This document shows, piece by piece, positions 12,356-28,271 of a stretch of 64,000 nucleotides of DNA (position 1 is its first letter; every line of letters begins with the position of its first letter). The notes beneath the pieces are model-generated. The model had not been told where the DNA came from and made no database searches. It saw only the letters and a program-made list of their open reading frames with translations. Source of the stretch: an uncultured Thermoplasmatales archaeon (GTDB lineage Archaea > Thermoplasmatota > E2 > DHVEG-1); NCBI GenBank assembly GCA_964615235.1, contig CAZTMK010000010.1, positions 2,118-66,117 of the forward strand. Reading direction: 5' to 3'. The position numbers and the translations under genes are program-made.

Positions 12356-12440
12356 TAATTATTATCCATTCAAGGCTTTGCCCATAAAGTTAGTAATTTA
12401 CCTGTTAGTCATTGACAAAAGATGTTTTTTGTAAAATAAT

Positions 12441-13073
12441 TTAAACATCCTCTTTCAATAGTTTCCCATCCGCTTCTAGCTTTTTTATATATTTTGAACA
12501 AATTAAATTTGTAAGATTTCTTGTTGCATAAACATCACTTAATGCATCATGAGCATTAAGAGGTATATCGAAATGTTTGCAAACAGTCTCTAACTTATAA
12601 TTAACAAGTGAAAAAGTTCCAATTCCATCAAGTAGATGTAGTATGGGTAGAGGATCGATTCCTTTATAATTGAACCAAGAACCAAAAAAATTATCTCCGT
12701 TTTTAATAAAAAAATGTCTCAGAAAATCCATATCAAATCTTGTGTTATAACCTGCATGATAAAACTTATCTGTTCTATCATAACGATCAACGTATTTTTC
12801 AAGTATTGCAATTAGTTTACAATATGCTTCATTAGGAGCAGGATATTTTTTAATTTCATTAATGGTCCTATTATGGATTTCAATAGCTTCTTGATCTATT
12901 GTACTGTAATTAAATGGCTGCATTAACAAGTTATGACTTTCAATAACCTTGCCTTTAATTTCTATCAAAAAAGCAAGCTGAATAATATCCTGTTTTAATG
13001 GATCTAAACCTGTTGTTTCGACGTCAAACCAAAACACTTTTTTTTCCAGGATAACACCCCCCATCTTTTTCAT
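12441..13073 (-). CDS. DEDDh 3'-5' exonuclease (DnaQ/epsilon-like)
   Basis: Exo I VFWFDVETTGLDP, Exo II GYNTRFDMDFL, Exo III HDALSDVYATRNL. It lies 57 nt downstream of the helicase gene on the same strand. Confidence 0.8.
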   Translation of the reverse strand: MKKMGGVILEKKVFWFDVETTGLDPLKQDIIQLAFLIEIKGKVIESHNLLMQPFNYSTIDQEAIEIHNRTINEIKKYPAPNEAYCKLIAILEKYVDRYDRTDKFYHAGYNTRFDMDFLRHFFIKNGDNFFGSWFNYKGIDPLPILHLLDGIGTFSLVNYKLETVCKHFDIPLNAHDALSDVYATRNLTNLICSKYIKKLEADGKLLKEDV

Positions 13074-13130
13074 AAATATCCATTTGATCGGTATAAATTT
13101 ATTGTAGTTTGATCTTGAGCAAAAATTATA

Positions 13131-14924
13131 TCACGTTACTGAAATTACTTTTTGTAGATGTTGGCATAGAATTTTTTTAACCTCTTCTTCTTCAAATCCA
13201 TATTCATTATCTTTTGAATCAATAAAACTTATTAAATCAAGGATGTCAGAGTAAACACAACTAATTTTTCTATTAGTTTGGGCTAGATTCTGCTCATCTT
13301 GTTTACTGAATAGAAAAATCACATTTTTAATCGCCCTACTTACCCCCACATAAAACAAATCTTTAGCTTCTGTAATATCTACTTTATCCTCATTTTTAAA
13401 ATCAGAACAAGGCCAACACAAATTGTGATGAGGTAATCGGTAATTTACAACTCCCATTATTAATACATATTTAAACTCTAAACCCTTTGAACCATGAATT
13501 GATGATAAAAATATTTTATCCTTTATGTTCGACCGAATTAGTTCTGTCCAATCTATTTCCATTTGTAAACAATTATAAAATTCCTGAAGACGTTTCCATA
13601 TTTCCTTTGACGAATAATCGCCTCTGTCAAAAACTCTAGAAAATTTTTCAATGGTAATTAATATTAAATCATTTTTAAATTGACTCTTATAATGTATATT
13701 TATTAATTCCCTAACGATTCGATTTACAGATTCATTGTTGTATTGATTATCTATGTGTGTTTTAATTTCAGTAAAAATTTTTGAGTACTTACAAGCAATA
13801 GATGTAAACTTATAATCATTAATAAAAATATAATCAATTGATCTTTGATCAAACTCCTTCTTAATGGGATTCGATGTTCTAAACTGGGGAAATAAGATAC
13901 AAATATCATGTAGTTTTACATTTTTCCCAATTAGACCAGTAATAATTTTAATGATTTTGGAATTTTCGTCTGCTACAGTATCGTTAATGTACATCTTATA
14001 ATTAATTCCTTTATCAACATTAAATTCGGGATTCCTTAACCTTTTTGTAATCGCTAATATTTTCTGAGAATTTGTTCTATGGTTCTCATGAAGCTCCAAT
14101 TCGGTACACTCAAAATCTTTAATTAATAAATCAATATTTTCTGGATTTGCACCTTGGAATTTCATAATAGCTTGTTTTTTATCCCCAACCACAAAAACAT
14201 TTCTTTTCAGTCCATCTGAATTTGTTGCAATTTCTTTGAATAATAAATATTGTACGTGATTGGTGTCCTGAAATTCGTCAGCTAATATCATAACATATTT
14301 ATTAAAAAAATAATTTTTTATTACAGGAAATTTTTTCAATAAATCTATCGTATGAAATAATAAATGATCAAAATCAAGCTTATCTTTAGTAATCAATTTA
14401 CTGCATATTCTTCTTCTCAATTCAATAAATATTTTTTCATTTTCGATCTCGTTTTCTTTATGCTGTAAAAATTTTTTATTATACCAACTGTTATAGTCTG
14501 AAATTAGCTTATAAAGTTCATTTTCATTCTCGTTATTTGCATCAGCTAGAATTTCTTTAAAATAATTCTTTTTAAACTCAAATATTTCATCTTCATTGAG
14601 TATTGTAAAGTATCTATTTATTCCAATATAATTACCATATGTCCGTAAAATATAATATGCCAATGTATGAAAATTCATAATATCTAGATAAGTTCCACTG
14701 TTTGGAATATTTATGCCGATCCTATCTTTCATCTCATTTGCTGCGGCATTTGAAAATGTTAACGCTAGTAACTTTTTAGGAGGATTGATCAATTTGCTTG
14801 ATATTAAATAACGTATTCTTTCCGTCATTACATGTGTTTTTCCGTAACCTGGAGGAGCTGTAACAAATATCGAAGATTCAATTGGTTGAAAAATTGCCCC
14901 CTCTTGGGATGTGTCAATTTCCAA
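13131..14924 (-). CDS. UvrD/PcrA/Rep-like SF1 helicase (GajB-like)
   Basis: Walker A APPGYGKTHV; motif II ILADEFQDTN; motif III VVGDKKQAIMKFQGA; HENHRTN; SIHGSKGLEFKYVLIMG; LFYVGVSRAIKNV. The TTG start lies 1 nt after the upstream stop. Confidence 0.8.
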   Translation of the reverse strand: MEIDTSQEGAIFQPIESSIFVTAPPGYGKTHVMTERIRYLISSKLINPPKKLLALTFSNAAANEMKDRIGINIPNSGTYLDIMNFHTLAYYILRTYGNYIGINRYFTILNEDEIFEFKKNYFKEILADANNENENELYKLISDYNSWYNKKFLQHKENEIENEKIFIELRRRICSKLITKDKLDFDHLLFHTIDLLKKFPVIKNYFFNKYVMILADEFQDTNHVQYLLFKEIATNSDGLKRNVFVVGDKKQAIMKFQGANPENIDLLIKDFECTELELHENHRTNSQKILAITKRLRNPEFNVDKGINYKMYINDTVADENSKIIKIITGLIGKNVKLHDICILFPQFRTSNPIKKEFDQRSIDYIFINDYKFTSIACKYSKIFTEIKTHIDNQYNNESVNRIVRELINIHYKSQFKNDLILITIEKFSRVFDRGDYSSKEIWKRLQEFYNCLQMEIDWTELIRSNIKDKIFLSSIHGSKGLEFKYVLIMGVVNYRLPHHNLCWPCSDFKNEDKVDITEAKDLFYVGVSRAIKNVIFLFSKQDEQNLAQTNRKISCVYSDILDLISFIDSKDNEYGFEEEEVKKILCQHLQKVISVT

Positions 14925-14925
14925 G

Positions 14926-16923
14926 CTATGTCACCATTTCCTTGGCTTTTATTATTAATTTTTTATAACATTCTGGAATATCATCTACAATCATTTCAGA
15001 GGCGAACATTGACCAGAATAACGACGATTTACATTTTTTTTCCAGAATATCTACAATAACTTCACTACTAATTTTTATCTTCGTATGATCTAAGCTATCA
15101 TAATTACTTAAAATATCTGATACACTCATTGGTTTAGTTTCATCAATATCTCTTTTTATGATGCCTACAAACTGACTTCCAACTCCTTCAGGATCGATCT
15201 TTATTAAGATCTTCATTATCTTGGCTTTGTCCATAGAGTTGACAATTTCATTCTCGATATTTTTATGATTAGTTTTAAAATATAATTCGTTATCATCAGT
15301 AATTAATTCTTCATCAGTACAATGGCCCTCATTATCCCTTATTGCAATACAATTTGTGAATTTTTTAAGAATAAGATAAATTGGTTTAATTGTATCTTTG
15401 CTTTCAGCATTAATCACTGTTAATCCTAACTGATCCAAATCTACATCTGTGATTTTTTTAGCAAATTCTGGAATTGCCCCAAACTCTGAACGTCCTTCAA
15501 TTATAATAACTCCTCTTGATAAAAAAATCTCAGGGTAAAGCCTAAAAATATAATCAAAATGTTTTATTTTTTCTGGCGATAATTCTTTTTTCAGTCGATC
15601 AATAAAAGTGTCATTAAACTTATTTATCTGGATTTTTTTATCCATGTCTTTATTAAAAAGACAAATATCAGATTTCTCAACCTGTGATAAAACAAATGGA
15701 GAATGAGTGGTAATGATAAGTTGAACATTCAAACCTAGATCAAGCAATTCCCCTTGTTTGATTTTTAATTTTTTAATAAGACTTCGCTGTAAATGTGGAT
15801 GCATATGAGCCTCTGGTTCTTCTACTGCAATTATTAAATTTGTAATATTTTCATCAGAGAAATCTACCTGGGTTAATAATCTACTTAATTTCAATGCTAT
15901 AACGAAAGAACTTTGCAGTCCACTTCCCTGATTTAAAATAGGGACGTTACTTAAACAAATATTTGTTTCATCGAATAGATTGGACTCGTCTATTTTTGCT
16001 AATTCAATTCCAAGTTGTCCTTCAGGAACAAATAATGAGAGATTGTCTTTTAACAAACCTTTTATTTTTTCAATACCATCTAAACCGTTTATCAATAATT
16101 GGAGTTCGCCTATTTTTTTTAATATTTTATTCTTATTCATTATATTATTGATGCTGCTTAGTATCTTCTTCATAAGTTCCGCGTCTTTTGCTTGAACTTC
16201 TGATAAAAAATCTTTTAATACATCTGTTATATTTTTAAAATGATCGAAATTTTCTTCTGATAAATTTTTTTTGATTTCAGATAAAATGATAATTAATCTC
16301 TCATCTTCATCCTTTTTATTTTCTGAAAGATATGATTCGATATTGTAGATACATGCATCAATTTGGACATTCAATGGTTTGAGAAAATATTTATTATAAT
16401 ATTTGAAAATCTGTTTTAAGTCACCTTTTGAGTATTGTGTTTCCTTCCATACATCTCTATATGCATCTATGAAATAGAATGGGATATATTTTTTATCATT
16501 TAATTTAAAAGCATCGCCTTTAGGATTATCCTTATCCTCCTTCCTATGAAAGAAAACCTCGACATTAGCATCATTATTTTCCTCTTCCCATTTTGCCTCC
16601 AGTCTAACACTTAACTCGTTTTTAGTAAAATCAATACCGTGCCATACAAAAGCGCTTTCATCATTTTCATTTATATTATCAAACGTTAATTCAATGATAA
16701 TTTCATCACTTCTCATTTTAGTTGAATCATCTAAATAGAAATCTTCTTCAGAAAAGTGTATTCTATGAGGACTTTCATCCATTCTTAATATTTTATATAT
16801 TGCCATCAGAATATTTGTTTTTCCAATGTTATTTTCACCAACTAATATAGTAAAAGGAGAAAAATCTATTGATAGCTCTGGTATATTTCTAAAATTTTTT
16901 ACATACAGCGTTTTTAGTCTCAA
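14926..16923 (-). CDS. OLD-family ATPase + TOPRIM nuclease (GajA-like, class 2 OLD)
   Basis: N-terminal KNFRNI...FTILVGENNIGKTNIL (P-loop), IIAVEEPEAHMHPHLQRSLI, LIITTHSPFV, and C-terminal TOPRIM-like GVIIIEGRSEFGAIPEF. A UvrD-like gene follows immediately. Confidence 0.8.
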   Translation of the reverse strand: MRLKTLYVKNFRNIPELSIDFSPFTILVGENNIGKTNILMAIYKILRMDESPHRIHFSEEDFYLDDSTKMRSDEIIIELTFDNINENDESAFVWHGIDFTKNELSVRLEAKWEEENNDANVEVFFHRKEDKDNPKGDAFKLNDKKYIPFYFIDAYRDVWKETQYSKGDLKQIFKYYNKYFLKPLNVQIDACIYNIESYLSENKKDEDERLIIILSEIKKNLSEENFDHFKNITDVLKDFLSEVQAKDAELMKKILSSINNIMNKNKILKKIGELQLLINGLDGIEKIKGLLKDNLSLFVPEGQLGIELAKIDESNLFDETNICLSNVPILNQGSGLQSSFVIALKLSRLLTQVDFSDENITNLIIAVEEPEAHMHPHLQRSLIKKLKIKQGELLDLGLNVQLIITTHSPFVLSQVEKSDICLFNKDMDKKIQINKFNDTFIDRLKKELSPEKIKHFDYIFRLYPEIFLSRGVIIIEGRSEFGAIPEFAKKITDVDLDQLGLTVINAESKDTIKPIYLILKKFTNCIAIRDNEGHCTDEELITDDNELYFKTNHKNIENEIVNSMDKAKIMKILIKIDPEGVGSQFVGIIKRDIDETKPMSVSDILSNYDSLDHTKIKISSEVIVDILEKKCKSSLFWSMFASEMIVDDIPECYKKLIIKAKEMVT

Positions 16924-19810: not shown

Positions 19811-21163
19811 TTGGAGCTTCAAAGAGGTACTAAAAAAACATTATTAAGAAGGGAAAGTAGTCAAATAGAATTTAAAAAAAATTTTAATTCAAACTCGTTA
19901 TGTGAATATGGTAAAATTTTATCCTCGATGGCCAATAACAAAGGTGGCTACATAGTTTTTGGAATAACCGAAAATAGACCACACGAGATTTGTGGCATGT
20001 CAAGTGATCAATTTGTAAAAATTGACCCAAGTAGAATTTCTAATTTGTTCGATGAACACTTTTCACCAAGATTGCGGTGGGATCAACATACCGAATTAAG
20101 AAATAGAGTGAAAATTGGTTTGATGCATGTAGAGCAATCTGTAACAAAACCCGTCATTTGTGTTAAAAGTGGAAACAGAGGTGAATATAAGCCAGGTGAA
20201 ATATACTATAGATACCCGGGTAAAACCACATTAATCAAACCATCAGAATTACAAACAATAATAGAGGAAAGAATAGAATCCATTAATCTAAAATGGAGAA
20301 ATCTTCTGGGAAACATTGCTAAAACTACACCGACAAAAACAGCTTTATTAAACACTGAATCTGGAAAGCTAATAGGGGATAAAAATATAATAGTTATTGA
20401 TAAAAACTTACTCTCTGAAATGAGATTCATTAAAGAAGGAGATTTTAAACAGGAAAATGGAAAGCCAGTTTATAAAATAGTTGGGGAAATTAAGGAAATT
20501 GGTGGCGCAACATTTATCGAAAAGGAAAAGAAAGTCCCTCATTTGATACACAAGACTGATATAATTGACTCCTTTTTAAACGAAAATTGTGATCATCCGA
20601 TAGTATATCTAAAACAGTTTCCTTATGAAAGTACAATTTATTTGCCAATATGGTACTTTATAAAAAAATCCGAACTTTCAATAGCTGAAGTGGAAAATAA
20701 ATGGAGCGAATTGGATGATGTAAATAATTTTGTTAGAAAACGATTAGTAAATAGATTAAAAAATGAGGATTTTGAAAAATTGAAGGTTGGTCGAATTGCG
20801 GAATTGGAGGGCGACATTTTTATAAAAGATTTAACCGAATATGACAATAAATATAAAGAGTGTAAGGATAAAAATTGGAATAAAGTTAAAAGTGATTTGG
20901 CGTTAGAAAGAAGCTTTCTTTTTGAGCTAATTAATAATAATTGTAGTAAGTATTTTGACAATAATTTAATAAAGAAAAAATATCGGTTGATTTTTGAAGC
21001 GATATCCCATCTCCAAATGGATAAAATTCAAACACAAAAAGAAGAATTAATAAGAATAATTAAACAGATGAGAGAAATTAAGATGTCTTCTCCTTATCTC
21101 TCAAATTTCAGAAAATCTATATGTTATGTTGATTGCATGTTGCATAGAAACGATGTTTGTTGA
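19811..21163 (+). CDS. AlbA_2 / Schlafen-like DNA-binding domain protein with a large uncharacterised C-terminal region
   Basis: N-terminus ESSQIEFKKNFNSNSL...ILSSMANNKGGYIVFGITEN matches the E-x-x-x-E-F-K ... AFAN-x-x-GG-x-hhhG pattern of AlbA_2 domains. TTG start. Confidence 0.5.
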   Translation: MELQRGTKKTLLRRESSQIEFKKNFNSNSLCEYGKILSSMANNKGGYIVFGITENRPHEICGMSSDQFVKIDPSRISNLFDEHFSPRLRWDQHTELRNRVKIGLMHVEQSVTKPVICVKSGNRGEYKPGEIYYRYPGKTTLIKPSELQTIIEERIESINLKWRNLLGNIAKTTPTKTALLNTESGKLIGDKNIIVIDKNLLSEMRFIKEGDFKQENGKPVYKIVGEIKEIGGATFIEKEKKVPHLIHKTDIIDSFLNENCDHPIVYLKQFPYESTIYLPIWYFIKKSELSIAEVENKWSELDDVNNFVRKRLVNRLKNEDFEKLKVGRIAELEGDIFIKDLTEYDNKYKECKDKNWNKVKSDLALERSFLFELINNNCSKYFDNNLIKKKYRLIFEAISHLQMDKIQTQKEELIRIIKQMREIKMSSPYLSNFRKSICYVDCMLHRNDVC

Positions 21164-21229
21164 TTAGATCGACCTACCAGCAATTACATATATGCCTTTT
21201 CAGATATAGTTTCAAGGAGGAAAATTAAA

Positions 21230-21787
21230 ATGGTCAATATTTGGAAAATTGGTGCATGGCCTGGAATTTTGGGTGAAAAATCTTCAAAGAACAAAGAAAA
21301 ATATATTCAGTATGCTTTAGATTTGAATTCTGTGGCGTTTGGATTCGGATACACCCCTGATTTCCGATCTCTTGACCGAGAAGAAATCTCCAACTATTTA
21401 AGAAGAAATCGTGAACCAGGAAACGAACCCGTGATAAGTAGAAAGACGAATGAGATATGGAATTTTTCTCGGATTGTCAAGGAAAATGATGTTTTTCTTC
21501 TTTATCATAGGTACAAGGCTTATGTAGGAATAGCAAAAAAGAACGACAACGGTGAATTGTATTATTACGTAGATAAAAACTCAAAACTTAATGTTATTGA
21601 TCCTACAAGTGAAAATAATGCCCCTCACAGAATCAATGTTGCCTGGGAAAATGGAAAGGAACCATTTGACAATGTTAACTTCAGTATGTGGAGAGATACG
21701 CTTCATCAAGTAACAAAGGATGATATGACCAAAATTAAAAATGATAAATTAAAAAAATATTTGTTGGAAAAATTAAAAGAAGATTAA
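21230..21787 (+). CDS. Hypothetical protein (185 aa)
   Basis: ORF with GGAGG-type RBS (CAAGGAGGAAAATTAAA ATG). The N-terminus MVNIWKIGAWPG...VAFGFGY is faintly reminiscent of PUA/EVE-like or Mrr-N-like modules. Not supported beyond that. Confidence 0.45.
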   Translation: MVNIWKIGAWPGILGEKSSKNKEKYIQYALDLNSVAFGFGYTPDFRSLDREEISNYLRRNREPGNEPVISRKTNEIWNFSRIVKENDVFLLYHRYKAYVGIAKKNDNGELYYYVDKNSKLNVIDPTSENNAPHRINVAWENGKEPFDNVNFSMWRDTLHQVTKDDMTKIKNDKLKKYLLEKLKED

Positions 21788-21928: not shown

Positions 21929-22384
21929 TCATTTATTTCTGCTAGAAATATCTTCAATATCCTCCCACTTTATGATTGTTACTTCACCATCTTGAAATAT
22001 GATGAAAGTGTAGATTTCATCATTGATTTCAGCAGTTACTTTGCAATAATTACTTTGTTTTTGCAAAAACTTATCAAAATCCTCGAAACGAATATCTGTT
22101 ATTCGATCTGATCCAAGATATTCGGCTGCTTTTGATCTTACTAATGTTTTGATTTTATTAAGGTTCCATTTACGGATTTCTGATCGGCGTTCTAAAGATA
22201 TAATGAGACTTACTATTCCGACAATGAATGATCCTATGGTAGCAAAATCAACAACCTCGAGATGCTGATCTACATTATCTTCAAATGATGAAAATAAAAC
22301 ATTAACGTCTAATTCAGAAGAAATATCAGAAATGTGCTTTCGAGTTAGAGTACCAAGTGGTACTTCAATACTAATTGTTTTCAT
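21929..22384 (-). CDS. Small protein with one central transmembrane helix (hypothetical)
   Basis: 151 aa; hydrophobic IGSFIVGIVSLIISL flanked by charged residues. 35 nt downstream of the 508-aa ORF on the same strand. Confidence 0.5.
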   Translation of the reverse strand: MKTISIEVPLGTLTRKHISDISSELDVNVLFSSFEDNVDQHLEVVDFATIGSFIVGIVSLIISLERRSEIRKWNLNKIKTLVRSKAAEYLGSDRITDIRFEDFDKFLQKQSNYCKVTAEINDEIYTFIIFQDGEVTIIKWEDIEDISSRNK

Positions 22385-22419
22385 GTTTTACCTCTTTTAT
22401 ATTTTATCAATTTAATTAA

Positions 22420-23946
22420 TTAAAATGCTTCGGAGGTTATTAATCCAAAGACTCCTAATAACATTGAAGAATCGAAAGATAATCCATTGAGATTAAATTC
22501 CTTTATTAACTGGTGTATTGAATCCTTCGTATCCCATGAGATAGGATAAATATCAATATGATCTCGTTTTTTAAATTTGATAATTAAGAATACGGAATTG
22601 GATACCATCATTTCAACTAATTTTACCCCTTTAATCTCTTCATGATTTGATATTATTTGTTTTACTAAAAAGCTAATCGGTTGTCCCCAGTGAATGTTCC
22701 AAATGTTAATTGGGATGATCGATTTTTGATTTACTATATGTTTTAGAATACATTCTGAACTCTCTGATTGCGTAATAATTAATCTGGGATGATTCAGGTT
22801 TGATAACCAAAAATCATTTTGTTCTGGGCTAAATATTGTAAATAATCGATTCTCGAATATATCGTATCTTTCAGCCTCTAAATTTGGCTTAACAAAGCTA
22901 AAACGAATATATGTATCTCCAGGATTTAAAATCCTGTTATACTTATGAGAAAAAACATGATTTTTCTCTTTATTACGATGTAGAATTGCCAAACAGTAGA
23001 ATTGATCATTCGAGTTAAGTATTTCCAATACCGCTTTTGGATTATTACAGTAATATAGATTTGATACATTTGGTGCTGCTGGTTGTACTATAACTTTCTG
23101 TGTAGAGTCCAAATAACCTACATTTGTTATCTTGACTCTGCAACTTTCTGGCATTCCTAATGCTAAAATTTGTTCGTTCCATGATTTAGCAAGGGAAACG
23201 CTTTGTGGAACTTTTATACGAGGAACAGATTCTAGATCAGGTACAAGTTGTTTAAAGAGTTTATCGGTGATTTCTGCCTCATCACGCTGATTTATCTCTT
23301 CATTATTACCTCTTGACCAAAGTCGTGACACATTTTCGTCCCATTCAATGATTATTGTATAATCTTTCCCATATAAAAGAGCCTTTTCTAAACGGGTGAA
23401 TCTCGACTCAATAAGTTGCTCCGTTACAATTCTTGTTTTAGTTTGTAGTTGTGATAAATCACTTATGTAGTCATAAAGTGGAAGATTTAAACAGTATATT
23501 CCTACATGTATTGCTAATGAATCTTTTGATGGATCTGGTATTGGAAGGTTATCATAGTTGTTTAACCAAAATCTGAACAAATCTAGGTAATTCTTTGTGA
23601 GATCAGATTCAAATTTCTCTCTCGTAATTTTATTGTTGCGTCTGATAGCTCGTTTATAAGATACATAACAAATGAGTCCTTCGAGTCGTTTAATTTGAGC
23701 ATCGTTCCATTCGTGTGCTAATAATCTAGCATTCCGTGCTAATTTTCCAGGACATTTCTCAGCAAGTTGTGATAAAAGTACAATACCATTCCCTATAGTT
23801 GTCAAACTGTTGAAAAGATGGTGAAGTGCTTCATGTTGCTGTGCTACAACAGAAGCAAATTTTGACAACCTGGAGGTTGGTAACCATCCAGGTCTCGTCA
23901 AACCTGATGGATGTTGTAATGGTTGGTATTTCCTTATATTATTCAT
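22420..23946 (-). CDS. Hypothetical protein, 508 aa, no recognisable motif
   Basis: Long uninterrupted ORF in AT-rich DNA. I could see no P-loop, nuclease, protease or HTH signature. Confidence 0.6.
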   Translation of the reverse strand: MNNIRKYQPLQHPSGLTRPGWLPTSRLSKFASVVAQQHEALHHLFNSLTTIGNGIVLLSQLAEKCPGKLARNARLLAHEWNDAQIKRLEGLICYVSYKRAIRRNNKITREKFESDLTKNYLDLFRFWLNNYDNLPIPDPSKDSLAIHVGIYCLNLPLYDYISDLSQLQTKTRIVTEQLIESRFTRLEKALLYGKDYTIIIEWDENVSRLWSRGNNEEINQRDEAEITDKLFKQLVPDLESVPRIKVPQSVSLAKSWNEQILALGMPESCRVKITNVGYLDSTQKVIVQPAAPNVSNLYYCNNPKAVLEILNSNDQFYCLAILHRNKEKNHVFSHKYNRILNPGDTYIRFSFVKPNLEAERYDIFENRLFTIFSPEQNDFWLSNLNHPRLIITQSESSECILKHIVNQKSIIPINIWNIHWGQPISFLVKQIISNHEEIKGVKLVEMMVSNSVFLIIKFKKRDHIDIYPISWDTKDSIHQLIKEFNLNGLSFDSSMLLGVFGLITSEAF

Positions 23947-24071
23947 TTAATTCATCTTAACCATAATTCCTTCTAATGATATAAGCCAAAACCGATTTCC
24001 AATCATTATTAAAATGAGTGGAAAGGATTTGACTCAAAAGTTTTAATCCTAAATGTGATATCTTATTGTGT

Positions 24072-24611
24072 CTAATCTCCATAATAGTGGGATCTAACTT
24101 TTCTTTGCCAATTTAAAATCGCTTCTCTTAATGCTTTTTTATCGGACTCAGAAAATTCACCGATGGGGATTTTATGAATAAAAACATCAGTAATTCCCTT
24201 GTCAAATACACCTCCCGTTATTTTTTCTTCCTTGAAAATCATTATTGGTATTCCTAATGAGAATAATATACCAGTTTCAATATTATTCCATGGAGTTGGA
24301 AAAGAAATATCTCCATTTTGCATATATTCCTCCTTAGAACCTCTTTTCCATATACCATTATTTGTAAAAAATTGCTCAAATCCTAAAATTACTCCGCCTG
24401 AGCAATGTTTTGCTATTACAAGCACCTCTTTTAAAGGAAAGTCTGATGGATAATCTGTTTTTCCTAGAGCTCTTGGTTCGAATCCTAAATCATCAAGTTC
24501 ATTAATAATTATTTTTTTCGCTTTCTCTTGTTCCTTATTAAGTATTGATGGACAAGATACAAAAACTGGAATTTTCATATTTTTCTCCATTTTAATAATT
24601 AATATATGCAA
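24072..24611 (-). CDS. TIR-like / nucleoside 2-deoxyribosyltransferase-like Rossmannoid domain protein
   Basis: Likely start at 24578 (MKIPVFVSCPS) or 24590. Contains GGVILGFEQFF and the C-terminal PTPWNNIETGILFSLGIPIMIF (E-x-G...G-x-P, as in NDT-like folds). Size is similar to stand-alone TIR proteins. Confidence 0.4.
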   Translation of the reverse strand: MHILIIKMEKNMKIPVFVSCPSILNKEQEKAKKIIINELDDLGFEPRALGKTDYPSDFPLKEVLVIAKHCSGGVILGFEQFFTNNGIWKRGSKEEYMQNGDISFPTPWNNIETGILFSLGIPIMIFKEEKITGGVFDKGITDVFIHKIPIGEFSESDKKALREAILNWQRKVRSHYYGD

Positions 24612-24653: not shown

Positions 24654-25382
24654 TTATATCGCCTTATTAGTATGCATTAATGCATTCTCTAATGAATTAT
24701 ATATTTCATCATAAGTTCGTACTGTTATTCTATTAATAAATGATGTAAAAATTTTAATCTTTTTTTTCTCATTATTATTTAACTTATTATCGATCAGAAG
24801 AATTCCATTTGTTTTGTTCATATCTATATTATGCGCTGATAAAATGTAGTCATAATGCTTATCACAATAATCAATATAGTCAATCAATTGAAATAATCCA
24901 TTAATAAAAAATTGATTAAATTGAAGATTCTTTGTTTTCTTATTGAACATATGGTCATGAGGTCCTTTTATTTCTAAAATATCATATCCACCATTTACTT
25001 TTTCTAATAAATAATCTAAGATTCTTTGTTCGCCAATTCTTTTTTGTGTTTCAATTTTCCTGTATGAATAACTGATAGACCAAGGATATTTTTGAAAATA
25101 TTCCTTCATATCGTTTTCATTGGTGTCTTTGTTCTCAATTAGATTTTTTAAAGAATTTAACGCTGATACATCTCGAGTTGGTGTTTTGTTAGATATTTTA
25201 GTAAATTCTTTCGAATATATTGAATTTAAAAAATCTAATCTAGTATTTTCATTAGAAAAAATTCTTTCGGTAGTTTTAACTAAATCCAAATCTTCATTCT
25301 CTACTAAATATCTAATGATTATTTCTTTTGATTTTGGATCATTTAAATTACTTTTAAATTGCTTAAGGAGGTTATCTTCCAA
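24654..25382 (-). CDS. DUF4263 (Shedu SduA-like) PD-(D/E)xK nuclease domain protein, short form
   Basis: EQRILDYLLEKVNGGYDILEIKGPHDHMF (D...E-x-K), then GILLIDNKLNNNEKKKIKIFTSFINRITVRTYDEIY, resembling the DUF4263 C-terminal block (hIhGr...n-h-x-h-x-TYD). TTG start. Confidence 0.5.
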   Translation of the reverse strand: MEDNLLKQFKSNLNDPKSKEIIIRYLVENEDLDLVKTTERIFSNENTRLDFLNSIYSKEFTKISNKTPTRDVSALNSLKNLIENKDTNENDMKEYFQKYPWSISYSYRKIETQKRIGEQRILDYLLEKVNGGYDILEIKGPHDHMFNKKTKNLQFNQFFINGLFQLIDYIDYCDKHYDYILSAHNIDMNKTNGILLIDNKLNNNEKKKIKIFTSFINRITVRTYDEIYNSLENALMHTNKAI

Positions 25383-25515
25383 ATCTTTTCCTCCTTTCCT
25401 CTTCCTCTTTTGCTTTTTTTAAAGCTTTTATAAGAGCAGCAAGACCTAATCCAGCTGCTGCTCCTAAAGCTGCTGCTCCAAGAAGTTCTAATAAGTCATC
25501 TATTTCATCACTCAT
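25372..25515 (-). CDS. Possible 47-aa Gly/Ala-rich single-helix peptide; not in the ORF track
   Basis: MSDEIDDLLELLGAAALGAAAGLGLAALIKALKKAKEEEERRKRFGR. Its end overlaps the TTG start of the DUF4263-like ORF by 11 nt, in another frame. Confidence 0.25.
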   Translation of the reverse strand: MSDEIDDLLELLGAAALGAAAGLGLAALIKALKKAKEEEERRKRFGR

Positions 25516-25640
25516 GATTTCCTCTTTTGTTTAATTATGTCTATTTTTCATTAAATCATCAATAATTCTTATTACTTTAGGATTTGTGGTACTGTAAAGC
25601 ATGGCGTTGTCAAATTAGGGTTGTAACTTCTGGGTTGGTA

Positions 25641-26072
25641 TCAGAAAGTTATTGAATATTTTCTAACTCGTTCTTTTGTTATATGTACCTGTTTATATTT
25701 ATTAGGAGTCAAATCACTTGATGGAATTTTAAGTAATTTTTTAATCTCCCAGTTATCATCAAACTCAATATAGATGATAAAATCAGAGGTTTCTAACTGT
25801 TTCTTTGTAACACGAAATAGATTTGGAGTATGCCAACTTGTTTCTTTTCTTGCTTTTATTTCATATTTTACTCCATCAGAATCAATAGCATCAAATCCTT
25901 TTTGGACTTTGCTATCTGAACGGTTGAGATTCAATAACTTACAAACTACATATTCGCCATAATCGGAAACTACTTTACTTGTTCGTATTACACCAGTTTT
26001 ATGTAAATCATTTAAAAGATTTCTGTATCGTATTAGTAATTCTTTTACCTTTAATTCATCAATTTCAGACAC
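25641..26072 (-). CDS. Small PD-(D/E)xK restriction-endonuclease-like protein
   Basis: 143 aa; GEYVVCKLLNL...KGFDAIDSDGVKYEIKARK fits D...E-x-K with the preceding helix. Confidence 0.4.
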   Translation of the reverse strand: MSEIDELKVKELLIRYRNLLNDLHKTGVIRTSKVVSDYGEYVVCKLLNLNRSDSKVQKGFDAIDSDGVKYEIKARKETSWHTPNLFRVTKKQLETSDFIIYIEFDDNWEIKKLLKIPSSDLTPNKYKQVHITKERVRKYSITF

Positions 26073-26267
26073 ATTTGGTTAATAAAAGCATACAATATAT
26101 AATTTGTCAATTTAGAGAGTTTTATCATAAAATTTTTTTACTTTGATGTCAGTCAACCCATATCTTAATCGTAGGCATTCTCTTACCCATGGATTTGCCT
26201 CAGGATCATTAATTATATCTATTGATTCTGTTGCGTATATGGTTGTTAAAGTTGGTTGGCACTTTCA

Positions 26268-26774
26268 CTATGGATGAGTTTTTATTATATCCCTTTTCAA
26301 ATTATCATATTCCTCTTTTGAAATTGCACCGCTATCCAATAAAGATTTTAATTTTGAGATTTCGTCTGCTTTTGAAACGTTATTTTTTTGTGAACTTTCA
26401 TTTCCTTGTTTTTTAATTTCATCAATTTTGTTTTCAATAAATGCCTTAACCTTTAACACCTCTTTGTTTAGTTTTCTTGCAGCGCCTATTGTGGGTTTAC
26501 CAAATGTGAACCTGTTCTCATTAGTTACGCCGCTGATCGGTCCCCCGCCTCTATCATTAGAACCTGGAAATGTGAATTCCATATAACCGGCAGTCCATCC
26601 CGCCTCCTTAAATTGTATTGAAGTAATATCTCTAAAATAGATTGTCTTATATCCAGCCAAACCTCTTGATAATATCCCAATGACCCCTTCTTGCGTCAAG
26701 ACCACTCTATCATCATAAACTTTCAGTACTCTTCCATCTGCACTTTTAATCTTATACAAAGCTTCAGTATTCAT
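26268..26774 (-). CDS. Bacterial-PH-like (DUF4429/YokE-like) domain protein with C-terminal SHOCT motif
   Basis: The C-terminus ADEISKLKSLLDSGAISKEEYDNLKRDII is a typical SHOCT sequence. The N-terminal pattern LKVYDDRVVLTQEG...IYFRDITSIQFKEAG...GYMEFTF is PH-like. Confidence 0.55.
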   Translation of the reverse strand: MNTEALYKIKSADGRVLKVYDDRVVLTQEGVIGILSRGLAGYKTIYFRDITSIQFKEAGWTAGYMEFTFPGSNDRGGGPISGVTNENRFTFGKPTIGAARKLNKEVLKVKAFIENKIDEIKKQGNESSQKNNVSKADEISKLKSLLDSGAISKEEYDNLKRDIIKTHP

Positions 26775-27308: not shown

Positions 27309-28271
27309 TTGATGCCTCAAACAACCTTGCCGGAAATCCTTTCTAAAATCGTAAGAGATATGGTTATGAACGGGAAAAGCAAGATAGAAACGGCAAACGA
27401 GCTTGGCATCAGCTATTACCAAGTGAAAAAGTACACCAAGGACATCACCGTTATTCAAAGGATCCCTTTGGAAGTTGAACAAAAGATAAGAGCAGACATA
27501 AGGAAAGGCCAATCAATAAGAAATGTTGCCAAGAAGCTAAAAGTCTCAAGGGATTCGGTGATCAAATACGCAAGGGACATTCCCAAAAAACAGAAATTTA
27601 TGAATAAAAGATCGCCCGAATTCATACAGGAAATAAGAGATAATTTAAGGAAATACGGCTCAAAGATGAAAACGGCTAGTAAGATGGGGCTTTCCTATGG
27701 AACGGTATGTTATTACACCAGAGATATCATAAAACAAAAAATAATTTCAAAAAAGGAAATAAAAGAAATAAGCGAAATGTTAATGAATGGGACACCAAAG
27801 GGTGAAATTGCCAAAAAACTTAACATTTCTAAAAATACGGTAACCAAATATACATCAGGCAGGGGAGGAGGTCCCCATCTAAAGGGCAGAACCGTGGAAA
27901 TCCTGCAGCAACTGTTGGGAGACGGTTATTATTTTCCCAAAAGAGGTGAAAACTCATACTGTTATACGTTAAGAATACATTTACCAATGATTTGCAAGGT
28001 GACAATGAGGAGCAGGACGATACTTTTTCTGGAAGATAAATCGGACGTCGCTATAAGGGCATATCTTTCATCACTGGATAAGAGGATATCAAATTATCAT
28101 AAACTCAAGCAGGTAATTAAAGTATTCAAAACCAGCATAGCCAACGAGGAAAAAAAGAAATATGTCAAAAAGAAAAGATCAAAGAAAGTTGGACATCGCG
28201 AGGATTTTTCAGGTGCACCCCCTCAAGAAAATGACGATTCCTTCGTAAAAAATGTAATTTCGATCTACTGA
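27309..28271 (+). CDS. DNA-binding protein with four tandem helix-turn-helix modules
   Basis: Four repeats with a period of about 50 aa: ANELGISYYQVKKYTKDI / VAKKLKVSRDSVIKYARDI / ASKMGLSYGTVCYYTRDI / IAKKLNISKNTVTKYTSG. Confidence 0.6.
   Translation: MMPQTTLPEILSKIVRDMVMNGKSKIETANELGISYYQVKKYTKDITVIQRIPLEVEQKIRADIRKGQSIRNVAKKLKVSRDSVIKYARDIPKKQKFMNKRSPEFIQEIRDNLRKYGSKMKTASKMGLSYGTVCYYTRDIIKQKIISKKEIKEISEMLMNGTPKGEIAKKLNISKNTVTKYTSGRGGGPHLKGRTVEILQQLLGDGYYFPKRGENSYCYTLRIHLPMICKVTMRSRTILFLEDKSDVAIRAYLSSLDKRISNYHKLKQVIKVFKTSIANEEKKKYVKKKRSKKVGHREDFSGAPPQENDDSFVKNVISIY

Follow-up and report, generated by a model that had tools for sequence, protein, structure and literature searches.

A candidate two-gene defence module beside a solo TIR/NDT-fold protein in the defence island of an uncultured Thermoplasmatales archaeon

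Do three adjoining genes in the defence island of an uncultured Thermoplasmatales archaeon form one immune system, or do they belong to separate units? The genes lie on the minus strand of a window of 64,000 nucleotides (nt), the whole stretch of DNA analysed here (assembly GCA_964615235.1, contig CAZTMK010000010.1, positions 2,118 to 66,117). A previous sequence-only reading had described them as a co-directional trio with gaps of 125 and 35 nt, encoding a TIR/nucleoside 2-deoxyribosyltransferase (NDT)-like enzyme of 179 amino acids (aa), a 508-aa protein without known hallmarks and a 151-aa protein with one transmembrane (TM) helix, all three forming one system. The open reading frames (ORFs) were confirmed at 24072-24611 (179 aa when read from a TTG), 22420-23946 and 21929-22384, and the gaps were as described. 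The first product is probably only 168 aa long and is referred to below as the 168-aa protein. The answer that we tentatively favour, with a confidence slightly below even, is that two separate units lie by chance side by side in the island, namely a solo 168-aa enzyme and a 508/151 pair that constitutes a candidate defence module.

This answer is carried by the distribution of the genes in other genomes. No match to the 508-aa and 151-aa profiles was found in 84 loci of the 168-aa family, and no match to the 168-aa, SLATT and ThsB-TIR profiles was found in 12 loci of the pair, so that the co-occurrence check set in advance for the single-system claim came out negative in both directions (0/84 and 0/12). 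The large gene was followed by the small gene in 9/9 informative loci (the window, L004, L087, L088, L089, L090, L091, L092 and L094/95), with a spacing of 2-37 nt where both genes are intact and a small gene of 142-163 aa, that of L088 being cut by the contig end. The pair loci range over 30-71% guanine plus cytosine (GC). In L004 (7986-13593), ~3.5 kb of inserted DNA with three transposase genes interrupts the 508-family gene, and the 3′ fragment of the large gene (12412-13131) still precedes the membrane-partner gene (13135-13593).

The gene upstream of the pair varies from locus to locus. It is the 168-aa gene in the window, a gene for a 633-aa TIR_2 protein followed by an 88-aa ORF in L087, and an Xre-type helix-turn-helix (HTH) gene in L092/L093; small ORFs without assignment were found in L088 and L004, an unrelated gene fragment in L086, and nothing on the same strand in L089 and L094. 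Zero co-occurrence together with a variable upstream gene makes juxtaposition the best reading of the trio. The repeated linkage of 508-aa homologs to both TIR/NDT-like and small TM genes, which had been proposed, was not seen, and the conserved unit consists of the 508-aa and 151-aa genes only. Two of the upstream arrangements are described here for their own sake. In L087 (123-4799), four genes with gaps of 2-39 nt encode the 633-aa protein, which has a C-terminal TIR_2 domain with a WTKHE motif, the 88-aa ORF, which is HsdM_N-like, a 665-aa member of the large family with a 160-aa N-terminal extension that is restriction-enzyme-like in appearance, and a 154-aa partner. In L092/L093 (1480-1716 and 433-708), the Xre-type HTH_31 gene lies ~130 nt upstream of a divergent 508-aa family member carrying an N-terminal zinc ribbon, a layout reminiscent of HTH plus HExxH-peptidase regulatory pairs.

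Known defence genes adjoin the pair in most of the loci with flanks. In the window these are Shedu, a restriction endonuclease (REase) and Gabija-like genes, and elsewhere the neighbours include QatABCD, NsnA/GmrSD-like, type II REase, Eco57I, SNase and TIR genes as well as an integrase, a resolvase and insertion sequence (IS) elements. One QatABCD-type system (L094, 8229-12875, the same as L095), in a genome of ~70% GC, is encoded on the other strand immediately downstream of the pair and comprises a QatA/KAP NTPase, an unmatched 269-aa gene, QatC and QatD/TatD. We infer a defence role from settings of this kind and regard the 508/151 pair as a candidate new anti-phage module of the abortive-infection type, possibly driven by a metal hydrolase. 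Shared mobility would account for the island setting if the pair were a real two-gene unit without an immune function, that is, a toxin-antitoxin or addiction, regulated-proteolysis or membrane-stress module on mobile elements; the integrase, resolvase and IS elements beside or within several copies, the HTH_31 gene upstream in L092/L093, which recalls CapH/CapP, and the extreme rarity of the family would all suit such a module. We nevertheless hold it to be unlikely, as known defence genes are the direct neighbours in most flanked loci, nothing related to the 508-aa protein was found in 72,556 plasmids, 50,697 phages and IMG/VR, where addiction modules of mobile elements would usually turn up, and toxin-antitoxin pairs do not typically consist of one protein of ~505 aa and another of ~150 aa with a TM helix.

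The 168-aa protein proved to belong to a large family of its own. Nearly all homologs begin MKIPVF, so the real product is probably the 168-aa form (24072-24578); the longer ORF exists, whereas its first 11 residues are probably not part of the protein. The peptides quoted for it in the sequence-only reading (KIPVFVSCPS, GGVILGFEQFF and PTPWNNIETGILFSLGIPIMIF) are all present. At E<=0.001, 1,234 homologs were retrieved, the top 120 of them at 53-72% identity, and the family amounts to more than 1,200 protein clusters. An alignment of 35 members contains 33 invariant columns, including F6, S8, D42-Y43-P44, H58-C59, Q69, W97-N98, E101, D126 and D131. The Glu of GFEQF, which had been put forward as catalytic, is variable in the family (E/T/S/A/K), and the invariant Glu is E101. 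It lies in a WNNIE motif of the general pattern W97-N-x-[LI]-E101, in which W97, N98 and E101 are invariant.

The AlphaFold2 (AF2) model of the 168-aa protein (predicted local distance difference test score, pLDDT, 90.1; predicted template modelling score, pTM, 0.85) shows strands and helices in a flavodoxin-like order (beta-alpha-beta), into which a beta-hairpin is inserted at residues 70-93, and the WNNIE motif stands at the beginning of helix 96-107, which follows strand 3 and this hairpin. The best Foldseek matches were 4ohb (MilB) and 4jen (BcmB), both cytidine monophosphate (CMP) N-glycosidases, followed by 8qc0/8pqt (NDT) and 9i9q/4kxm (DNPH1), with E-values of 8e-5 to 7e-4 and template modelling scores of 0.45-0.57 (TMq) and up to 0.72 (TMt). 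TIR structures were also matched, namely the SfSTING TIR (7un8), TIR-STING (9lmq) and the SARM1 TIR (9mw2, 7cm5-7), at E 2e-4 to 7e-4, probability 1.00 and TMq 0.49-0.54. NDT-type enzymes thus ranked slightly above TIR domains, and flavodoxins were lower. TIR domains have a WxxxE motif with the catalytic Glu, and NDT enzymes have an ExG motif; by likeness to these motifs, E101 is a candidate catalytic Glu. The enzyme would probably cleave or transfer an N-glycosidic bond in NAD+, in a signal of the ADP-ribose/cyclic ADP-ribose (cADPR) type or in a nucleotide via this residue.

No such relationship was found by sequence profiles. The TIR profiles PF01582, PF13676 and PF08937 (ThsB_TIR) gave no Pfam match to the 168-aa protein of the window at E<=1, none of the 35 family members matched a TIR or NDT-type profile in Pfam at E<=5, membership in NDT-type profiles (PF05014 and related) was not found, and a PDB sequence-profile search returned nothing relevant. 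The earlier assignment of a TIR/NDT-like domain therefore stands for the predicted fold (AF2, Foldseek) and falls for sequence-profile membership (Pfam, hhalign): the 168-aa protein, as modelled, is TIR/NDT-like at the fold level and not by sequence profile.

The surroundings of the 168-aa family were surveyed with one genome per species; at least 195 places encode relatives, and 80 loci were kept. Relatives occur in many phyla and in at least one archaeal metagenome-assembled genome (MAG). Clustering of the neighbouring genes yielded two recurrent families, identified by Pfam as SLATT_1/DUF4231 and ThsB_TIR. With local profiles run against all ORFs, a SLATT gene was found to adjoin the 168-aa homolog in 16/80 loci and ThsB-type TIR genes were found near it in 13/80 loci. 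The cassette orders observed include TIR-SLATT-168 and TIR-168-SLATT-TIR, with up to three TIR genes (1-3); pairs of 168-aa and SLATT genes without a ThsB-type TIR in the fetched locus also exist, and on an IMG/VR contig a ThsB TIR lies upstream of a 168-aa homolog. Otherwise only unrelated housekeeping genes adjoin on the same strand (MutS, TsaD, Lon, aconitase, urease and others), so that roughly three quarters of the genomes have the 168-aa gene as a solo copy. In L007 an 8xMP membrane protein is encoded beside a family member.

Some individual loci of this family are of separate interest. On the megaplasmid pHLAC01 of Halorubrum lacusprofundi (L101, 36692-39580 of the record), two annotated TIR-domain genes stand beside a 168-aa homolog annotated as hypothetical, in a cluster that also holds a gene with an adenylate/guanylate-cyclase domain and adjoins an ISH3 transposase; it looks like an archaeal TIR-signalling cluster. 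The closest homolog with a named source organism (71% identity) is encoded on the chromosome of a 'Thermoplasmata archaeon' (CP070751.1; L001/L006) among five or six Pfam-unmatched genes, beside an RHH-PIN pair and an IS110 transposase. This record, at 5.16 Mb, is seemingly large for its class and its taxonomic label may be doubtful. In a Paludibacter MAG (L005, 4026-6507, the same as L008), a 168-aa family member overlaps by 4 nt the gene before it, whose 165-aa product combines a coiled coil with a C-terminal TM helix; that gene is itself preceded by one for a 490-aa DUF8370/DUF8371 protein, the C-terminus of which is PD-(D/E)xK-like. Behind the family member come genes for a zinc-ribbon protein and an RNase_T exonuclease and two GmrSD genes. 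The idea that this trio is the same system reordered was rejected, since its 490-aa and 165-aa proteins are not homologous to those of the window. A protein of ~508 aa encoded downstream of the 168-aa gene in Pyrinomonadaceae was likewise set aside as NUDIX/metallo-beta-lactamase-like housekeeping, unrelated to the 508-aa protein of the window.

The cassettes with SLATT and TIR genes invite comparison with Thoeris. A TIR protein with a SLATT protein has been validated as type VII Thoeris (effector ThsH) and a TIR protein with a CMP-hydrolase-TPR (tetratricopeptide repeat) protein as type VIII (ThsI), both using a cADPR signal, and rare operons with both SLATT and CMP-hydrolase effectors have been reported (preprint 10.64898/2025.12.03.692087). 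The 168-aa family resembles type VII in its TIR-like fold and in its adjacency to SLATT_1/DUF4231, often in the order TIR-SLATT-168, and in the 168-aa/SLATT pairs without a TIR gene the 168-aa protein occupies the place of ThsB. In contrast, the family fits no TIR profile, is mostly solo and, unlike ThsB as far as is known, has a beta-hairpin insert and an invariant pair of His and Cys; no SLATT or ThsB gene exists in the window, and beside its 168-aa gene neither SLATT, ThsB-TIR, SIR2 or Macro genes nor other Thoeris components in PADLOC were found. As to type VIII, the model is closest to the N-glycosidase fold, with the CMP N-glycosidases MilB and BcmB ahead of NDT and DNPH1, and the reported operons with SLATT and CMP-hydrolase resemble the TIR-SLATT-168 cassettes; however, the 168-aa protein is a single domain whose TMq scores are only 0.45-0.57, and the lack of a TPR domain sets it apart from ThsI. 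These findings fit a 168-aa family that is either a divergent TIR-like partner of SLATT or a bare CMP-hydrolase-like accessory of Thoeris-type cassettes.

Several observations weigh against the reading of two separate units, one of them a defence module. A TIR-fold gene lies directly upstream of the pair in 2/8 pair loci with upstream information (the window and L087), a share above what we would expect from chance and one that speaks for some coupling. The neighbours of the 168-aa family are enriched in small membrane proteins (18/44 versus 26/207, p=4e-5), so that a single-TM gene two genes away fits the habit of the family; the enrichment is mostly due to SLATT, and leaving SLATT out gives 9/35 (p=0.06). 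The pair is known from nine loci only, and the case for it is computational. The solo 168-aa genes stand mostly amid housekeeping genes outside defence islands, and given these surroundings the defence role of the 168-aa family is likewise a putative one; no homology was detected when the family was compared by hhalign with the ThsB TIRs that neighbour it (probability 0.7%).

The coupling suggested by the first two points would take its full form in a single three-gene Thoeris-like system, in which the 168-aa enzyme would sense infection and make or process a nucleotide signal, the 508-aa protein would receive it and, with the 151-aa protein, execute abortive infection. The three genes are indeed co-directional with a spacer of 125 nt and no terminator between them; on the same strand, however, SduA follows upstream at 75 nt and an REase ~260 nt further on, so that co-directionality is not specific to the trio. 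The TIR_2 gene of L087, which with the 88-aa ORF precedes the pair in a tightly packed operon (gaps 2-39 nt), suggests that the pair may optionally be coupled to TIR-fold genes, but its product and the 168-aa protein are unrelated in sequence, and the pair occurs without any TIR-fold gene in L089, L092/L093 and L094/L095. Thoeris effectors are known to be highly varied, and the 168-aa family stands elsewhere beside membrane effectors (SLATT in 16/80 loci, 8xMP in L007, the coiled-coil TM protein in L005); against this, the 168-aa gene is solo in most genomes, the profiles did not co-occur in either direction, and no signal-binding domain (SLOG, Macro, SAVED, CARF or STING) was detectable in the 508-aa protein. 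Functional coupling of all three genes is consequently considered improbable, and the one-system form of it unlikely.

On the favoured reading of a separate pair, the 508-aa protein is the large subunit of the module. Its family is very small. A word-indexed homolog search, with the protein alone and as a profile, gave only one partial relative; an exhaustive HMMER search of 1.84 billion representatives brought up 18, ~15 of them full length, and a metagenome scan with a tightened family alignment gave one weak match. The sequence-only reading had found no known hallmarks in this protein. This was borne out as regards P-loops, nuclease patterns and family matches: no Walker A, GIY-YIG, PD-(D/E)xK or GxSxG pattern occurs in it, Pfam, NCBIfam and PDB-sequence searches gave no match for the whole family, PADLOC gave 0 for 15 members, and the protein contains no TM-grade segment. 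A conserved HExxH motif had been overlooked. It is found as HEALH (H38-E39-x-x-H42) on helix 32-48 and is kept in 14/14 family members that cover the region. Since HExxH arises in 2.5% of composition-matched shuffles of the protein, the argument rests on the invariance of the motif at 24-48% identity. E89, likewise invariant, follows H42 by 47 residues and may be the third metal ligand, as in gluzincins; the long helix on which it lies (67-103) also carries invariant Y94, R99 and R102. A second invariant set (S333, Y336, R338, Y346, W420 and P468) lies in the C-terminal half.

The AF2 model of the 508-aa protein (pLDDT 88.9, pTM 0.87) consists of an all-alpha part with the HExxH motif (residues 32-262) and an alpha/beta part (residues 286-505). 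Foldseek returned no structural relative, the best E-values being 0.3 (PDB) and 0.1 (BFVD, predicted viral structures), with no peptidase among the matches. From HExxH and the downstream Glu, the protein may be a metal-dependent hydrolase, most likely a peptidase. The alpha/beta half may serve in sensing or regulation. Neither a solved metallopeptidase (Foldseek) nor a Pfam zincin resembles the HExxH domain, and an obvious zincin beta-sheet is lacking in the model, which makes the peptidase assignment weak. That HExxH is not a peptidase site at all, and that the 508-aa protein is a non-proteolytic sensor or another metal or nucleic-acid enzyme gating the membrane protein in the manner of RexA/RexB, appears quite unlikely: the want of zincin likeness, an all-helical domain without a clear substrate-binding sheet, the invariant R99, R102 and Y94 near E89, which could equally bind a phosphate-bearing ligand, and the restriction-enzyme-like extension and zinc ribbon at the N-terminus of one member each would agree with it, but HExxH with a Glu 47 residues on in a neighbouring helix is the classical gluzincin signature and is among the very few invariants of the family.

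The 151-aa partner has an acidic N-terminal stretch of ~45 aa ending in QHL[DE], one TM helix and a conserved C-terminal domain of ~85 aa. The single TM helix claimed for it was confirmed as one TM-grade segment at residues 47-64, the best 19-residue window (residues 44-62) having a Kyte-Doolittle value of 2.31. Seven partner proteins each have one TM-grade helix (Kyte-Doolittle 1.8-2.3) with the same charge asymmetry, and the 151-aa protein is 25-36% identical to partners from 6 other loci. Because the helix is flanked by acidic residues on the N side and basic residues on the C side, an N-out/C-in orientation is predicted, with the conserved C-terminal domain in the cytoplasm. A SLATT identity (PF18181, PF14015) was considered and rejected; there was no Pfam or local-profile match, and the protein has one TM helix, not two.

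If the pair acts in immunity, the 508-aa protein would on infection act on the cytosolic domain of its partner or on a cellular target. The 151-aa protein would either tether and restrain the 508-aa protein or be released to oligomerise and damage the membrane, and activation of the pair in infection would lead to growth arrest or membrane damage.

Known modules offer parallels to parts of this scheme. The Lit protease of e14 is a gluzincin metallopeptidase used in immunity. CapH/CapP combines an HTH protein with an ImmA/IrrE-type HExxH peptidase (10.1101/2022.04.27.489752). The 508-aa family shares with Lit and CapP an invariant HExxH with a downstream Glu, a defence-island setting and, in one lineage, an Xre-type HTH gene upstream; it differs from them in having no sequence or structural likeness to peptidases, a much larger size, an unrelated alpha/beta half and an obligatory single-TM partner. 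RexA/RexB of phage lambda is a two-gene abortive infection system made of a cytosolic sensor and a membrane effector, RexB, with four TM helices. The 508/151 pair is similar in layout, with a gene for a large soluble protein followed closely or with overlap by one for a small membrane protein, and in its patchy distribution. In contrast, there is no homology, the partner has one TM helix and a conserved cytosolic domain, and the 508-aa protein has an enzyme-like motif.

None of the three trio proteins was matched in scans of Pfam, PADLOC, NCBIfam and PHROGs, PDB sequence-profile searches with alignments of all three families gave chance matches only (E ~1), and PADLOC-DB 2.0 gave 0 families for each trio protein, in keeping with the earlier statement that they match no named system. 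None of the trio is a member of a described system, and the pair resembles sensor-plus-membrane-effector abortive-infection modules in layout only.

The defence-island setting described in the sequence-only reading was confirmed by the presence of SduA, an REase, Gabija-like genes, exonucleases and a Schlafen/AlbA_2 gene (Table 1). The island spans ~12.4 to 27 kb of the window and has housekeeping genes on both flanks. Three genes make up the Gabija-like row, and their products are a DEDDh (RNase_T) exonuclease (210 aa), a UvrD-type helicase (597 aa) and an OLD-family AAA_15/TOPRIM ATPase (665 aa); a second DEDDh exonuclease is also found inside the island. The SduA protein is short, containing the Shedu nuclease domain only. 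Convergent with the 508/151 pair, the Schlafen/AlbA_2 gene and the gene for a 185-aa protein, which gave weak PADLOC PDC-S02 matches, may be a separate two-gene defence candidate. In a promoter/terminator scan, which carries little information here, no intergenic terminator was found between the trio genes and promoter-like sites numbered 24 versus 23.7 expected; an Rfam scan of the locus, including the 125-nt spacer, gave no match.

Table 1. Features of the trio and of the surrounding defence island, in window coordinates
Feature	Position	Strand	Basis or remark
Gabija-like GajA/GajB pair and extra exonuclease	12441-16923	-	three genes in a row
Schlafen/AlbA_2 protein (450 aa), then, 66 nt on, 185-aa protein	19811-21787	+	Pfam/PADLOC scans
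151-aa single-pass membrane protein (unit 2, small subunit)	21929-22384	-	TM prediction and alignments
TM helix FATIGSFIVGIVSLIISL, residues 47-64 of the 151-aa protein	22193-22246	-	Kyte-Doolittle
Spacer between 508-aa and 151-aa genes	22385-22419	-	35 nt, within the conserved pair
508-aa cytosolic protein (unit 2, large subunit)	22420-23946	-	all-alpha half and alpha/beta half
Invariant E89 of the 508-aa protein	23680-23682	-	47 residues after H42, on long helix 67-103
HEALH (H38-E39-x-x-H42) of the 508-aa protein	23821-23835	-	on helix 32-48
Spacer between 168-aa and 508-aa genes	23947-24071	-	125 nt
168-aa TIR/NDT-fold protein (unit 1)	24072-24578	-	mechanical ORF runs on to TTG at 24611
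WNNIE (W97-x-x-x-E101), candidate catalytic-Glu motif of the 168-aa protein	24276-24290	-	alignment and model
SduA (242 aa), methyl-directed type II REase (143 aa), SHOCT-domain protein (168 aa)	24654-26774	-	Pfam/PADLOC
320-aa protein with several repeated HTH units (HTH_7, GerE, HTH_28, others)	27309-28271	+	island edge

A more far-reaching proposal, which we regard as possible and rather doubtful, is that the pair is an undescribed anti-phage system, composed of a new-fold HExxH enzyme and a single-pass partner, that is autonomous yet can be wired to TIR-fold genes, such as the 168-aa gene in the window and the TIR_2 gene in L087, as a novel type of effector module in TIR-based immune signalling, and that the 168-aa family is, separately, a new unannotated TIR-like class which bacteria and archaea carry in Thoeris cassettes resembling type VII. 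Should the pair give protection from phages, it would be a new defence module in which both proteins are without sequence or structural relatives, a possible new metal-hydrolase fold and a simple case of a soluble enzyme coupled to a one-helix membrane protein. The wider pay-off may lie in the 168-aa family, which is conserved at 50-70% identity between phyla and in archaea and is missing from Pfam, NCBIfam and PADLOC, and which is missed by present defence annotation pipelines. Within Thoeris-type immunity it could be a new component that makes or degrades a signal or depletes nucleotides, and through its link to SLATT and ThsB it is a more generally useful lead than the very rare pair.

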